Source: Paecilomyces variotii
Taxonomy: Eukaryota
Length of the DNA stretch: 64,000 bases
Direction: 5' to 3' (one strand)
Assembly (NCBI GenBank): GCA_004022145.1
Contig: RCNU01000009.1
Shown here: positions 112-43,258 of the stretch, piece after piece
How the letters are laid out: the number at the start of each line of letters is the position of its first letter
How positions within the stretch are numbered: position 1 is the first letter of the stretch
Made by a program: the position numbers and the translations under genes
The notes under the pieces: model-generated
Seen by the model: the letters and a program-made list of their open reading frames with translations, nothing else
Database searches by the model: none
Told to the model about the DNA's origin: nothing

Positions 112-1540
112 GGTGGCGGTTGTGTTGCTTCTCTGATAGTTGTTTGTTGTTGCAAATGTCCGCTAGTTCTATTGCGAATGGGAAGTTGAATTCGCACAAG
201 CGATCGTAGTTTTCTCTGGCGGTGCGGGTCGGGTCGATAGATATATAATATATCAATCACGTCGTCACCGGGTGTGGATCCACTGGCGTTTGGTCGTTTC
301 CTCCCCGTAAGTAATAATCAACACACGGTGTCTGCTTTTAACTATCTGCTGTTGTCTTTTCAGCGCAACCACACAGCAAACGAACAGCTTGTCGATTTCT
401 TGTGATAGCGACACTCGAGATGAGAGCAGGAATAATATGCAATCTGGATCAATTGGACATAAGGAAATACTCAGCACTGACGGTGACGAGGGGGTGAGGT
501 CAGGATTATATTTATTATCTATTATTGTACGGGGAAGCCGGAAGCGGGAAGCTGCTTGCGGTCAAACGCCGCCCCGTGACGTTGACTGGCGGAAGTGGTC
601 TTTTCTCGGGATTTGGAGAAGCAGACAGGGCAGTCTGGTACGCCTGCGTTACCGTCATTTTTACTCCCGGCCCACGCCACGTCGAGCATTGCGGTTTCCT
701 CCGCGTATTCAGCCGTACCGACCGCCCGAGAAAGCAGCAGCATTATTATTATTATCATTATTACTTCTCCTTGTCTTGCCGAAGCGGTCAATAATGAGAT
801 TATTAGATAAGCCAGCAAATAAATAAGTAACTAGTTTAAGAAGAACTAATTAAATAATAGAAATTGCAAAAGGCGACGTCCGATAGCCTGCAGAGCCTGG
901 AGAAAACTCGGGCCAGTCCCATGACGTCGGCTGACTCAGCCGTCCTCCTTCCATTCCGTCTGCTTTTCGTGCGATCCTGACTGGCCCGATTCCCGTCGTG
1001 AGGGGAAAGTAATCATGAGGGGAAATGCCTTCTCCTCTGAGGGGCTGGAGTAGAGATTACCATAATACCATAATAATATGGTATGTTCAGAGTAATAAAC
1101 ATCCAAGATATCTCCGAGACCTTGCAGGGGCAGAAACATGCAGGAAAAGTCGCTAGAGAAGAACTAACTACGTCATAGATGCTTTTTTTTCTATGGGATT
1201 TCCCTGATTTCGTGATGCTTCTCGAAGTAAATGAAACAGAACAGCTCATCTGCAAACACCGCCAGAATGAAGCTCCCTCGTTACTGCAGCGGGATGAACA
1301 TACTCATACACAAATGCAAGCATGGACGAGAATAGAAACAACCAGACTCCATGACCCGTAGACGCCACCGGAAATGCCCCAGAACGAGACCCATGCGGGT
1401 CCACATCGCAGAAAGATTAAAGTAACCCCAGTTCATCGCAGACAGGTGCCAGGTGGATTCTATCCCATAGGCCCCAGTGTTTGTGAATGATATAGAGTCG
1501 ATAGAGGGCGAAGAGACGGACAGAGCAAGACAGCCATGCT

Positions 1541-3047
1541 CTATCTCCGGGATCCCTTCTGAGCCGCAATCTGCCGCGCCTTCATACGGCGGAAACGATC
1601 CTCTCCGCTCGCACCCAGCGGACGGGCAAACTTGCTCTCCTGCACAACGGTCGAGCGCGGCACGACCGTGTACGACGTATGAGTCTGGTCCACCCGCGCG
1701 CGGTTCGCCAAGCGCGGCGGAAGGAGCTCGCGTGCACGTGCTTCCGCCGCCGTGGCCTGCGCATTTAGTACCTGCGGGCGCATTGCCAGCTTCCTGTAGT
1801 AGTCATTAGTGTATGCTCGACGAATGACGGAGAGAAAGAAGAGTAAGTGAAGAACATACGTAGGATCAAAGTCCGCCTCCTGGTACACACGCTTCGAGTA
1901 GTCATCGCTCCGCTGCAGGATCGGGCGAGTCCACTCCGCCAGCAGACGTTCCGCCTGGCGCTTGATGCCCGGTTCCGGTCTCTTGCTCTTGGTGTAGAAG
2001 ACAATGACCTTGCCGATACCACTGGCGATCAGAGCTTCCTTGTTGATAGGCAGCTTCGCCAGCGCGTTCATGAGGTCGCGCTGAATGTTGTATGCTGGCA
2101 GCGATCCGTCGTCCAGAGGCTCCAGGAAGAACTTTACCGCCTCGAGAAGGTTGATCTCGGGGTCAACCAGACTGTTGACATATTGATTGCGGTTCAGGAG
2201 CGACACCACTTCCGGGAGCATCCTGAGCTTGTGCATCGCAGGCTTACCTTCCCGGCGGTTAACGGCGTCCAGCTGGGCTGCCTGTGTCATGCGCTTGCGG
2301 ACATCCTCGATCTCAGCATCGGCCATCTGTTCCAGGTCCTGCAGAGACTTATTAGCACCCTCCGACTACACAAGTCAATTTCGGAAGCACTTACAATGCC
2401 ATCCGCTTTGCGAGCTCTTCTCTTAGTTGGCTTCTTCAGTGCCTCGTCCATAGCACGGTCGAGGGCTCGGCGGCGTCCTGTTCAGCGTCCATCAGTAACC
2501 GTTGACCCCAATCCCAGTAATACTAGAGAAACTCACTCGTAGCGGGATCCAAGTGCTCCTCGTCTTCTGGAGTGGCCTCCTTTCTCCTCCTGCGGTCACC
2601 ATCCCTTCTCCTGCGACCCTTTCCCTCCGCTTCCTCTCCGCCGACCTCCTCGTCGTCTCGTCGCTTCTTTCTCCGACCCTCCTTTCTCTTGGGTCTCTCT
2701 CCGTCCTCGCCATCTCGCTTGCGCTTGTGACGACCGATGAGCTTCAGGTTCTCCTCATCAATCGCCAGAGCAGGACGCTCTTCGATAGCGACATTGTCGG
2801 GATCGAAGTCTTCGAACTGCGCTTCATCGACTTCCGACAACACCGACTCGTCATCGGACAACAGATCGGCAGCAGCGTTATCATTCTCCTGCTCTTCATT
2901 CTCAATATTTGTCGCTTCCGCATCTTCATGGCCGTTCTCTTCATGACCGTTCTCTTCATGACCGTTCTCTTCATGACCGTTCTCTTCGTGGTGGTTATTC
3001 TCCTCAGCGACCGGCGAGCCGGGACGATCTTCCGGTGTAGCAGACAT
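1541..3047 (-). CDS. IWS1: Transcription elongation factor Iws1/Spn1 (TFIIS N-terminal-like domain)
   Basis: Acidic N-terminus plus conserved core (KFFLEPLDDGSLPAYNIQR, SGIGKVIVFY, LAEWTRPIL). GT-AG introns at 2478-2536, 2339-2394 and 1794-1859; ATG at 3047, TAG at 1541-1543. Confidence 0.93.
2923..2987. repeat. Coding 15-bp tandem repeat (CTCTTCATGACCGTT, about 4 copies) encoding (EENGH)n in Iws1
   Basis: Directly visible tandem units; translation reads HEENGHEENGHEENGHEENGHE. Confidence 0.9.
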
Positions 3048-3580
3048 TATCACAGCTTTATATCTCTGACCACTTCTCTAAATGGGGGAGATACAAAATC
3101 GAAATAGACAAGACGCGACTCGAGATTGTTGCTGATGTGAATAAAAAGACGTTATTCCTTGGCTCTCCGAGGCGCGCTTCCCGAGACTTTCGCGCAATGC
3201 TAAAGTGACCAGAAATCACCAAGCCTTGACTAGTATATGCGAACACCGTAAAACCGTTGATGCTGACTGCTGATCAGCCCACAAAATATGAGAAGATGAT
3301 GAATAGAGAAGTCAAGCTCCGTTGCACGACTTCTCGCGGGGTGGCTGGTTTGAAAGGGGACGACGTTGCGGCTCAAATAAATTCGGGCCCCAAAGACGCA
3401 GTTGGCCTGTGCGTCCGGCTGGTGAAAGCTTTCGAGAAAGTCCGGGCAGCGATAACTTAGCTCTCGAGAATATATTAATACATATCCCATTCAACAACGC
3501 TACATAGTACTGGACTCGCACGACTCTTGTTATAACCATACCTTACTTCTTCATTACAAGAATCACATAAAGCCGTCAAA

Positions 3581-40873: not shown

Positions 40874-41228
40874 CCTGAAGCAGCACAAAGGTCGATGTTG
40901 GTTGACACAGAGATGAAAGCCCACTTGGTATACGCAAGGAAACGTTTCCCTTGGTAAATAATTATTAATGACCAGTGTATACGCGCTTAGGCCGCACTAG
41001 TCCGTGTAGCTAAAGGTCCAACTATCTATCAATCAACCATTCCGGAACCGTGTCTCCAGACTGCTTGGCTGGTCTCTGCCGCCTGCCGTAGCACCGGTTC
41101 ATTTTGACCACAAACAGCTCAGCCCGAATTTGAACTCTCCATCCTTACTACACCTTCACGATTCCCACTTTCTTTCTTTTCCTTTCTCTCACCCCCTTCA
41201 CCCGCGCGACTTCGCGCAATCCGCCACC

Positions 41229-43258
41229 ATGGACATGAACCATCTAATAGGGTCAGTCTCTCGGATTCGCTGCGTGTGAATCTGGCATTGTGCGGCTGGG
41301 CTCGAGCTGACAGCAGGCAGTCAACGGTTCAACCTCATCTCCAAGAGTGACATCCGGTATGCTTACCTATTGGACTTCCATTCGCAATAGCACCTTTTAC
41401 TGACGATTCCTCCAGTTATGTGGGCACATTACATGAGATTAACCCCGAAGCTTCCACGATTGCCCTCGAGAATGTCATCTCTCATGGCACGGAAGGGCGA
41501 CGTGGAAACCCCGCAGAGGAGATCCCTGCGTCCACAAGTGTTTATGAATACATTGTCTTCCGAGGCAGCGATGTAAAAGACATCAGTGTAGCAGAGGACA
41601 ACAAGGAGAACAACCAGCCTGAGCCTCCTCAGGTGCCAAATGACCCTGCCATTCTAGGGGTAAGTCTCTGTCTCGTCCCTCCCAGCCTCACAATTTCCTT
41701 TTAATGGGATATCCCCTGGTCATATGATGAATCATTTCGGATGTAAACACAGACCTGTTCTGAATGCGCAAATCCTTGTTGATATTTCCGTTGCCTTCCT
41801 TCTGATGACCTCCATCCACATAACCTATGACTATCTGTTTCCATATGTTGCGACCTATGCTGACCTTTATTGAAGAGCATGTCCCGTCCAGGGCCTCCTC
41901 AGGCTCTGCCCCGGCCTCAGCAGCCCCAACAGTCTCCAGGCCCTCGCCAGCCTCCTCCTGGCTATCCTCAGCAACCGCAATTTCAAGGTTTCTATCCTCC
42001 TTATGGTCAGCGCTTTGGCCCCCCTGGTTACCCTCCTGGTCCGGGTTTCCCGGGTATGCCTTACGGTGCACCACCAGGATGGTATCCCCCTCCCGGGCAG
42101 GGTTTCCCTCAGCCACCAGGCCAGTTCCCACCCCAAATGCCGCTTGGAGCTCCGGGTCAGCGACCTGTTGGCCCCCGTGCTCCTGGAACACCCGGTTCTG
42201 CCCCTTCCATTCCTCAACCCACTTCTGAACTCCCAGGTGGTGACAAGGCCTCAAGCAAGCCTGTGACACCTGCTCCTGGCCAGGGCGCTGCCCCTCCACC
42301 GCCAGTAGAGTCGAAGCCCTCTGTGGCTGAGGCCGTCCAGGCTTCTGCGAAGCCCACCTCTGGACCTGCCCCTTCTGCTGCAGCTGGCCCCGCCACTCCA
42401 TCTAAAGTGCCACCTAATGGTCCTAAGAGTGGTCGGGTTGTCCCGGCTATTCCTCTTGCGAATCCTTCCGTGAAGCCAGTCATCCCGGCAGTGCCTAACA
42501 TCCCTGCTGGTAATGCTGCATCTCAGAGCTCGGCACAGGCTGCCATCACTGAAGCCACTCGCGCTGCGACTGCTGCTGTGGCTGCTGCCATGGCTAAACT
42601 GCCTCAGCCAAACGCGCAGAATAAGCCCCAGCAGACCAACGCTGCTGTTGACAACCTCACTAAGAAGATGAGTGAGGTCAAGGTTGACGGTAGCAACCGT
42701 GGCCAGCGCGGTGGATACCAGAATGCCAGAGGCGGACGTGGTGCTCACCGCGGACAGTTCCAGGGGCAGACCAAGAAGGTTGAGGTCCCAACTACCGACT
42801 ATGATTTCGAGTCTGCGAATGCCAAGTTCAACAAACAGGATCTCCTCAAGGAGGCTATTGCTTCCGGCTCTCCGGTGGCTGAGCCTGAAGACCATGTCAA
42901 CGGTACTGCTGAGGCGCAGACGGGGGCAGATGGCGCTGCTACTCTCGCCCAGGCTGCTTATAACAAGAAGTCGTCTTTCTTCGACAATATCTCTAGCGAA
43001 AGCCGTGACCGCGAGGAAGGCACCGGCAGAGGCCGGGAATGGCGTGGCGAGGAAGAGAAGAGGAACATCGAGACTTTCGGCCAGGGAAGTGTCGATGGCT
43101 ACCGTGGTGGATACAGAAACCGCGGTCGAGGAAGAGGCTACGGAGGCCAAAGAGGCCGAGGTGGCTACAACCGGGGCTATAACAACGCTCGTGGACGCGG
43201 CGGTATCAGGGGCGGTCGTGGTGCTTCTCAAGCCACCGGCGTTCCTACACAAAGCTAG
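41229..43258 (+). CDS. SCD6: Lsm14/Scd6/Sum2 decapping activator and P-body protein
   Basis: Lsm domain (LISKSDIRYVGTL..GTEGRR..YEYIVFRGSDVKDI), DYDFESANAKF (DFDF), SSFFDNIS (FFD), NIETFG (TFG) and RGG tail. Introns include 41660-41876. Confidence 0.93.
41718..41810 (+). ncRNA. Intronic box C/D snoRNA with two 18S rRNA guides (snR56-like and snR52-like targets)
   Basis: Terminal stem GGTCA(41718)/TGACC(41810); C box ATGATGA 41724-41730; D' CTGA 41760-41763; C' TGTTGA 41777-41782; D CTGA 41802-41805. D' guide CACAGACCTGTT complements 18S AACAGGUCUGUG. D guide GTTGCCTTCCTT complements 18S AAGGAAGGCAGC with one G-U pair. Confidence 0.9.

Follow-up and report, generated by a model that had tools for sequence, protein, structure and literature searches.

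The third intron of an SCD6-type gene of Paecilomyces variotii, which lies in a 64,000-nucleotide (nt) stretch of contig RCNU01000009.1 (assembly GCA_004022145.1; "the window" below), is far longer than introns 1 and 2. A first-pass annotation, made from the sequence alone, had read positions 41718 to 41810 as a box C/D small nucleolar RNA (snoRNA) with two guides directed at the 18S ribosomal RNA (rRNA). We asked whether such an RNA exists, which rRNA nucleotides it would address, and whether its residence in SCD6 is shared with other fungi. Our analysis supports the first interpretation as regards the anatomy, the host gene, the intron and both predicted targets: the element is very probably an intron-encoded box C/D methylation-guide snoRNA, a member of the snoZ13_snr52 family and the probable orthologue of Afu-200 of Aspergillus fumigatus. 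This reading is carried by the Rfam match, by the element's anatomy and host intron, by its complementarity to 18S rRNA and conservation among relatives, and by a discrete RNA seen in RNA-derived contigs.

Intron 3 of an SCD6-type gene contains a box C/D snoRNA

A cmscan search against Rfam, the check that the first-pass annotation had proposed, returned RF00335 (snoZ13_snr52) at 41715-41815 on the plus strand, scoring 87.6 bits where the gathering score is 47 (E-value 2.9e-16). The match covers model positions 1-101 of 101 and is the sole Rfam match in the whole window at gathering thresholds. All of the elements that had been named for a complete C/D architecture (stem, C, D', C' and D) lie where they had been placed:

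41718..41810, plus strand: snR52/Z13-family box C/D snoRNA, mature form about 91-94 nt (RF00335; RNA contigs)
41718..41722, plus strand: 5' half of the terminal stem, GGTCA, complementary to 41806-41810
41724..41730, plus strand: box C, ATGATGA (from the sequence; aligns with box C of the Rfam consensus)
41740..41745, plus strand: GGATGT, conserved among homologues, a candidate for accessory pairing with 18S ACAUCC
41748..41759, plus strand: D' guide, CACAGACCTGTT, a 12-nt Watson-Crick match from position 1 upstream of D'
41760..41763, plus strand: box D', CTGA (from the sequence)
41776..41782, plus strand: box C', TTGTTGA, degenerate, matching RUGAUGA at 5/7 positions (from the sequence)
41790..41801, plus strand: D guide, GTTGCCTTCCTT, a 12-nt match with one G-U pair from position 1 upstream of box D
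41802..41805, plus strand: box D, CTGA (from the sequence; agrees with the Rfam alignment)
41806..41810, plus strand: 3' half of the terminal stem, TGACC, complementary to 41718-41722

Boxes C and D are accompanied by a terminal stem of 5 base pairs (bp), D' is an exact CTGA, and C' is present in degenerate form. Both guides reach 12 nt (at least 10 being required), abut box D or D' and have their target opposite position 5, and membership of RF00335 is given by the score above gathering together with a D guide for the equivalent of the 18S Am420 site. These observations confirm 41718-41810 as a genuine box C/D snoRNA, far beyond what chance would produce.

The identification of the host gene as SCD6 also stood, since Pfam finds the domains of the Scd6/LSM14 architecture on either side of intron 3, with LSM14 in the frame at 41420-41659 and FDF in the frame at 41870-43258. 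Contigs of four public RNA runs were aligned to 41150-42250, and the joint across intron 3 was present in two of the four. The gene is organised as follows:

41229..41251, plus strand: exon 1 of the SCD6-type gene, ATG at 41229 (sequence and spliced joint 41251|41321, run X7)
41252..41320, plus strand: intron 1, 69 nt, GT..AG (joint in one contig, run X7)
41321..41356, plus strand: exon 2 (joints in runs X5 and X7)
41357..41415, plus strand: intron 2, 59 nt, GT..AG (joint 41356|41416, contigs of X5 and X7)
41416..41659, plus strand: exon 3, LSM14 (Scd6-like Sm) domain (Pfam PF12701, E-value 1.7e-22, over 41420-41659)
41660..41875, plus strand: intron 3, 216 nt, GT..AG, host of the snoRNA (joint 41659|41876, X5 and X7; shorter side 244 nt)
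41860..41864, plus strand: CTGAC, the likely branch-point motif, about 53 nt past the snoRNA's 3' end
41876..43258, plus strand: exon 4 with the FDF domain, to the stop codon (Pfam PF09532, E-value 4.6e-23; open reading frame listing)

The spliced contigs correct the length of 217 nt first given for intron 3 by a single nucleotide, leaving in place both the assignment of the snoRNA to this intron and the remark that it is much longer than introns 1 and 2. The snoRNA is separated from the 5' splice site by 58 nt and from the 3' splice site by 65 nt, and close relatives carry CTGAC or CTAAC at the aligned candidate branch-point position.

RNA contigs point to a discrete RNA

Run X6 (study P3) yielded a 91-nt contig that corresponds exactly to 41718-41808, with a word depth of 248, while the host-gene contigs in the X6 and X7 runs have depths of 25-47. 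Further short contigs of X6 end at 41808 and 41811 and then continue in A runs, and run X7 (study P4) contributes a contig spanning 41718-41811 with homopolymer runs on its flanks. The homopolymer loose ends thus fall at 41718, 41808 and 41811. Such ends fit a discrete RNA of 91-94 nt, of which we regard them as a moderate hint, and the size agrees with that of the 91-nt complementary DNA (cDNA) of the A. fumigatus counterpart. Strain differences within intron 3, seen in contigs of X1 and X6, occur at 41675, 41704 and 41827, and none is located within 41718-41810. Two other contigs were not used as evidence: an unspliced one from run X1 (41256-42250), which could stem from pre-mRNA or from library DNA, and one of 152 nt from run X5 (41729-41874), which runs from inside the snoRNA to the last bases of intron 3 and may be an excised-intron fragment.

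Both guides pair with 18S rRNA at two conserved sites

For the pairing we used the 18S rRNA of locus L138, a complete fungal-type 18S that is not this species' own. The locus is one of 51 (L115-L165) found when an 18-nt motif of eukaryote 18S was searched for in prokaryote assemblies. It contains a complete 18S at 1278-3072 (Rfam SSU_rRNA_eukarya, 1790 bits), the 5.8S and a part of the large-subunit (LSU) rRNA that covers the first 971 positions of the model, agrees around the 18S motif with other ascomycete-like loci, and includes the site of the ITS1F primer with a single mismatch.

On this template, the D' guide forms 12 consecutive Watson-Crick pairs with AACAGGUCUGUG, which brings its position 5 opposite G1423 (yeast G1428), and the D guide, in a 12-nt duplex with AAGGAAGGCAGC that includes one G-U pair, has its position 5 opposite A416 (yeast A420). 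The first-pass annotation had described both antisense elements as 12-nt complements of 18S rRNA and had assigned them, by the fifth-nucleotide rule, to the yeast Gm1428 site (D') and the yeast Am420 site (D); all of this was borne out on L138, with the one G-U pair in the D duplex. Among shuffled 12-mers, a run of 12 nt with at most one G-U pair arose in 1/1000 cases for D' and in 2/1000 for D. A laxer shuffle that allowed unlimited G-U pairs (15/2000 and 176/2000, respectively) proved too permissive and was replaced by this control. For the D' guide, G1423 is the only strong match in the 18S, 5.8S and first 941 nt of the LSU of L138 and in stretches of other eukaryote ribosomal DNA (rDNA) downstream of the 18S motif. 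A second guide for 25S-Um2921, which is a trait of yeast snR52 and not of the RF00335 family model, was not found in these partial rRNAs; a weak match in a complete fungal 25S, which they do not include, is possible.

Both nucleotides are sites of guided methylation in other fungi. In yeast, Gm1428 is attributed to snR56 and Am420 to snR52 (PMC5344495), and Neurospora is listed with 18S-Gm1423 (snR56 homologues) and 18S-Am417 (snR52 homologue) (PMC2780460). From the complementarity we infer that the two 18S methylations occur in P. variotii and depend on this snoRNA.

As a side observation, short eukaryote rDNA contigs, some of them fungal-type, turned up in many prokaryote assemblies and metagenome-assembled genomes, isolate assemblies included (L115-L165). 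These loci are mostly contaminants; L138 itself is filed under a Streptomyces assembly.

The snoRNA is conserved among relatives

Homologues were sought in metagenome contigs with a 21-nt pattern made up of the D guide and box D, which gave at least 114 loci (L001-L114). All counts of homologues here and below refer to the matches listed, which comprise 89 distinct 96-nt snoRNA bodies, 4 of them truncated. Each of the 20 loci submitted to Rfam scored above the RF00335 threshold (20/20). We aligned the window with four close relatives (L028, L056, L068 and L077); their LSM14 exons share 82-86% identity with that of the window. In this alignment 70/93 snoRNA columns are invariant, against 2/58 and 5/65 in the two intron flanks; without the 21 columns that the search pattern fixes (D guide and box D), the count is 49/72. 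The snoRNA is thus better conserved than the rest of the intron, as the first-pass annotation had anticipated of a functional element.

The terminal stems of these four relatives differ in sequence from that of the window and keep their complementarity, over 6-9 bp. Across all listed homologues the mean helix measures 2.36 bp, compared with 1.99 when the partners are permuted (200 permutations, the highest reaching 2.30); the family-wide stem signal is therefore weak, and clear stems of 5-9 bp are confined to the close relatives. At the place of box C', NTGNNGA is present in 108/110 listed homologues long enough to judge, among them the form [AG]TGT[GT]GA.

GGATG, about 9 nt past box C, is present in all 110 of these homologues. 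GGATGT is complementary to an 18S ACAUCC (context ACATCCAAGGAAGG in L138) that lies directly 5' of the D-guide target AAGGAAGG, and GGAUG may form an accessory pairing there, beside the A420 site, that aids the D guide. Covariation is uninformative on this point, the 3' side being fixed by the search pattern, and Rfam offers an alternative for the region in the form of a CGGA:UCCG internal stem. A literature search for extra base-pairing by snR52 found no paper on it.

A separate conserved motif is GCGCAAA at 41766-41772: GCG[CT] follows box D' in 110/110 listed homologues and GCGCAA in 84/110, with no obvious role. The 18S rRNA contains GCGCGCAAA a few nt past the A target, in the same sense as GCGCAAA, so that only the GCGC palindrome could pair.

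The D' slot varies, while most homologues share the SCD6 intron

The core of the G1428-type guide, ACAGACCTGT, occurs in 16/114 of the metagenomic loci, or 13/89 distinct bodies, and is followed by CTGA in 5 of these 13 and by CCGA in 8. Guides of this type match the L138 18S at G1423 over 12-15 nt. The remaining D' spacers gave only 9-12-nt runs with G-U pairs, which is the level of noise, on the 18S, 5.8S and first 941 nt of the LSU of L138 and on eukaryote stretches downstream of the 18S motif. The spacers of L016, L024, L060, L001 and L007 end either in ..ACCTGTCTGA, as in L016, L024 and L060, or in ..ACTTGTCTGA. Judged by their sequence, both look like eroded G1428 guides shifted by one nucleotide, which would fit the listing of the Neurospora snR52 homologue with an A target only.

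To assess the host, all loci were compared by tblastn with the LSM14 exon of the window. In 77 of the 96 assessable loci this exon was found on the same strand, at a distance of 60-500 nt upstream; 19 lack it although their upstream sequence extends to 450 nt or more, and 18 were too short to judge. Expressed as distinct bodies, 59 have the exon, 14 do not and 16 are not assessable, which places 59/73 assessable bodies in an SCD6 intron. Identity of the exon to that of the window ranges from 42 to 86%, and since most tblastn matches stop at the same query residue, the intron position is the same. Locus L015 has a divergent host, an FDF protein, for which the nearest clusters in the Atlas are for the most part ascomycete. 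When 57 diverse LSM14 queries were used in a second pass, only weak matches were added, in 3/21 of the loci scored as having none; in L114 the exon lies downstream of the snoRNA.

In eight of the loci outside SCD6, the neighbours are eRF1 (L005 and L019, both with G1428-type guides), RPL6e (L034), ATP synthase gamma (L050), DUF5321 (L020), DUF2408 (L040), a 3-beta-HSD-type dehydrogenase (L051) and Rot1 (L062), and L020 has two tandem RF00335 copies. The snoRNA family has thus moved or been duplicated in some lineages.

No paper tying snR52 or snoRNAs in general to SCD6 as host emerged from a literature search that did not extend to the supplement (Section S9) of Canzler et al. 2018, and the linkage to one SCD6 intron in 59/73 assessable distinct homologues may be unreported. 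Taken together, these data allow a tentative picture, plausible rather than probable, in which the snR52 family has been kept in a single SCD6 intron directly after the LSM14 exon across a broad array of mostly ascomycete fungi, its D' slot being re-used or left to decay and its GGAUG possibly pairing with 18S rRNA. If true, expression of an 18S methylation guide has been tied to that of a translational repressor over a very long period, and the free-standing SNR52 of yeast is the derived state. Residence of the family in the same SCD6 intron in about four-fifths of the assessable metagenomic homologues would bear on what keeps snoRNAs with particular host genes and, together with the variation in D', is of modest interest for snoRNA evolution.

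Proposed mechanism and alternative explanations

The processing route of intronic snoRNAs and the role of Fibrillarin/Nop1 as the enzyme are well established. By analogy, the P. variotii snoRNA would be transcribed within the SCD6-type pre-mRNA, and a small nucleolar ribonucleoprotein (snoRNP) would assemble on its C/D kink-turn. Splicing and debranching of intron 3 would free it, exonucleases would trim it to the borders of the core snoRNP bound to it, at about 91-94 nt, and Fibrillarin/Nop1 would methylate, for each guide, the 18S nucleotide that faces its position 5, the D guide putting the methyltransferase on the A420 equivalent and the D' guide on the G1428 equivalent.

Several points weigh against this account. 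The D duplex contains a G-U pair at position 11, and the degenerate box C' (5/7 positions) could weaken D'-guided methylation. Both methylations are predictions, for which the pairing was computed on the L138 18S in place of the species' own rRNA. The RNA evidence consists of assembled metatranscriptome contigs, which cannot prove ends, strand or level, and the two studies that supplied them may belong to one campaign. Finally, the orthology with Afu-200 involves a host gene, Afu1g12390, whose identity with SCD6/Sum2 is putative and is supported solely by the matching intron number, size and both targets.

It is conceivable, if on the unlikely side, that only the D guide for A420 matters and that D' is redundant with one or more separate snR56-type guides elsewhere in the genome. 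Neurospora offers a precedent, with Nc CD19 and Nc CD41 both assigned to 18S-Gm1423 and Nc CD42 listed with an A target only (PMC2780460), and the decayed-looking guides ending in ..ACCTGTCTGA (L016, L024 and L060), as well as the degenerate box C' of the window, point in the same direction. However, the 10-nt D' core is invariant in 13 distinct homologues despite a host LSM14 exon identity of 57-86%, which argues for selection on the D' guide, and the D' guide 12-mer exists as a single copy in the 64-kb window, a count whose scope is the window and not the rest of the genome. That one RNA does both jobs, as the first-pass annotation had put it, can be no more than a possibility, since the genome may contain further guides directed at the G site.

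Quite improbable, in our judgement, is the idea that the element mainly serves its host, with a snoRNP on intron 3 modulating how SCD6 is spliced or expressed and rRNA guidance taking second place. Its appeal lies in the recurrence of the same SCD6 intron in 59/73 assessable distinct homologues, a linkage tighter than hitch-hiking requires, but the 14 distinct homologues outside SCD6 keep the boxes and the D guide, so that what is conserved in function moves with the RNA rather than with its host. As for the view that box-like motifs came together by chance within a long intron, with no stable RNA, its sole attraction is the general frequency of CTGA and TGATGA motifs; set against the Rfam E-value of 2.9e-16, the discrete RNA contigs from two studies, the conservation relative to the flanks and the cloning of the A. 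fumigatus counterpart as cDNA (as tabulated by its authors), it retains virtually no probability and is effectively refuted. An intron-encoded guide snoRNA with two predicted 18S targets is the reading that we retain.

Comparison with known systems

The closest known system is Afu-200 of A. fumigatus, and the expectation of the first-pass annotation that the RNA may already be catalogued among Aspergillus snoRNAs proved correct, both there and in Rfam as RF00335. Afu1g12390, the gene that hosts Afu-200, is the putative SCD6/Sum2 orthologue. Literature on Afu1g12390 was limited to an expression table that gives no annotation and to Jöchl et al. 2008, and searches for AFUA_1G12390 with Sum2 returned nothing useful. 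In Table 1 of Jöchl et al. 2008 (PMC2377427), Afu-200 is entered with 2 cDNA copies, 91 nt, northern n.d. and accession AM921928, in intron 3 (sense) of Afu1g12390, with Am415 and Gm1422 in 18S as targets. The P. variotii snoRNA likewise measures about 91 nt and lies, in sense, in intron 3 of a protein-coding gene, and its A416/G1423 pair matches the Am415/Gm1422 of that table; the likeness is one of intron number, size and both targets. The snoRNA is already known: in 2008 it was cloned from a sister species, and the two targets predicted there are the same. The finding itself adds little that is new, and it shows that reading raw sequence can recognise an intronic double-guide snoRNA together with its rRNA targets.

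In S. cerevisiae, SNR52 is an independent, non-intronic gene. Its snR52 shares with the P. variotii snoRNA the Rfam family RF00335 and the D-type guide for 18S Am420, whereas its second target is 25S-Um2921 and that of the P. variotii RNA, via the D' guide, is the 18S G1428 site. The first-pass annotation had assigned Am420 to snR52 and Gm1428 to snR56 correctly, but its contrast of one RNA here with two in yeast does not hold, as yeast snR52, with the sites 18S-Am420 and 25S-Um2921 (PMC5344495), is already a double guide. What differs here is therefore the second target, in the D' slot.

That second target, the same conserved 18S G, is addressed by a D' guide in snR56 of S. cerevisiae, Nc CD19 and Nc CD41 of Neurospora and human U25. 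Compared by target, the snR56-type guides differ from the P. variotii snoRNA in having no A420 guide, and Nc CD19 and Nc CD41 are separate Neurospora RNAs of about 72-75 nt. Nc CD42 of Neurospora (92 nt, intronic, an snR52 homologue with a D guide for 18S-Am417; PMC2780460) resembles it in its intronic location, similar size and D guide for the A site, and differs in being listed with the A target only. Both lineages meet in clan CD_19, which unites snR52 and snR56, is described by Canzler et al. 2018 (PMC5824354) as joined by target switches, and is counted there among the few double-guide groups traceable across fungi.

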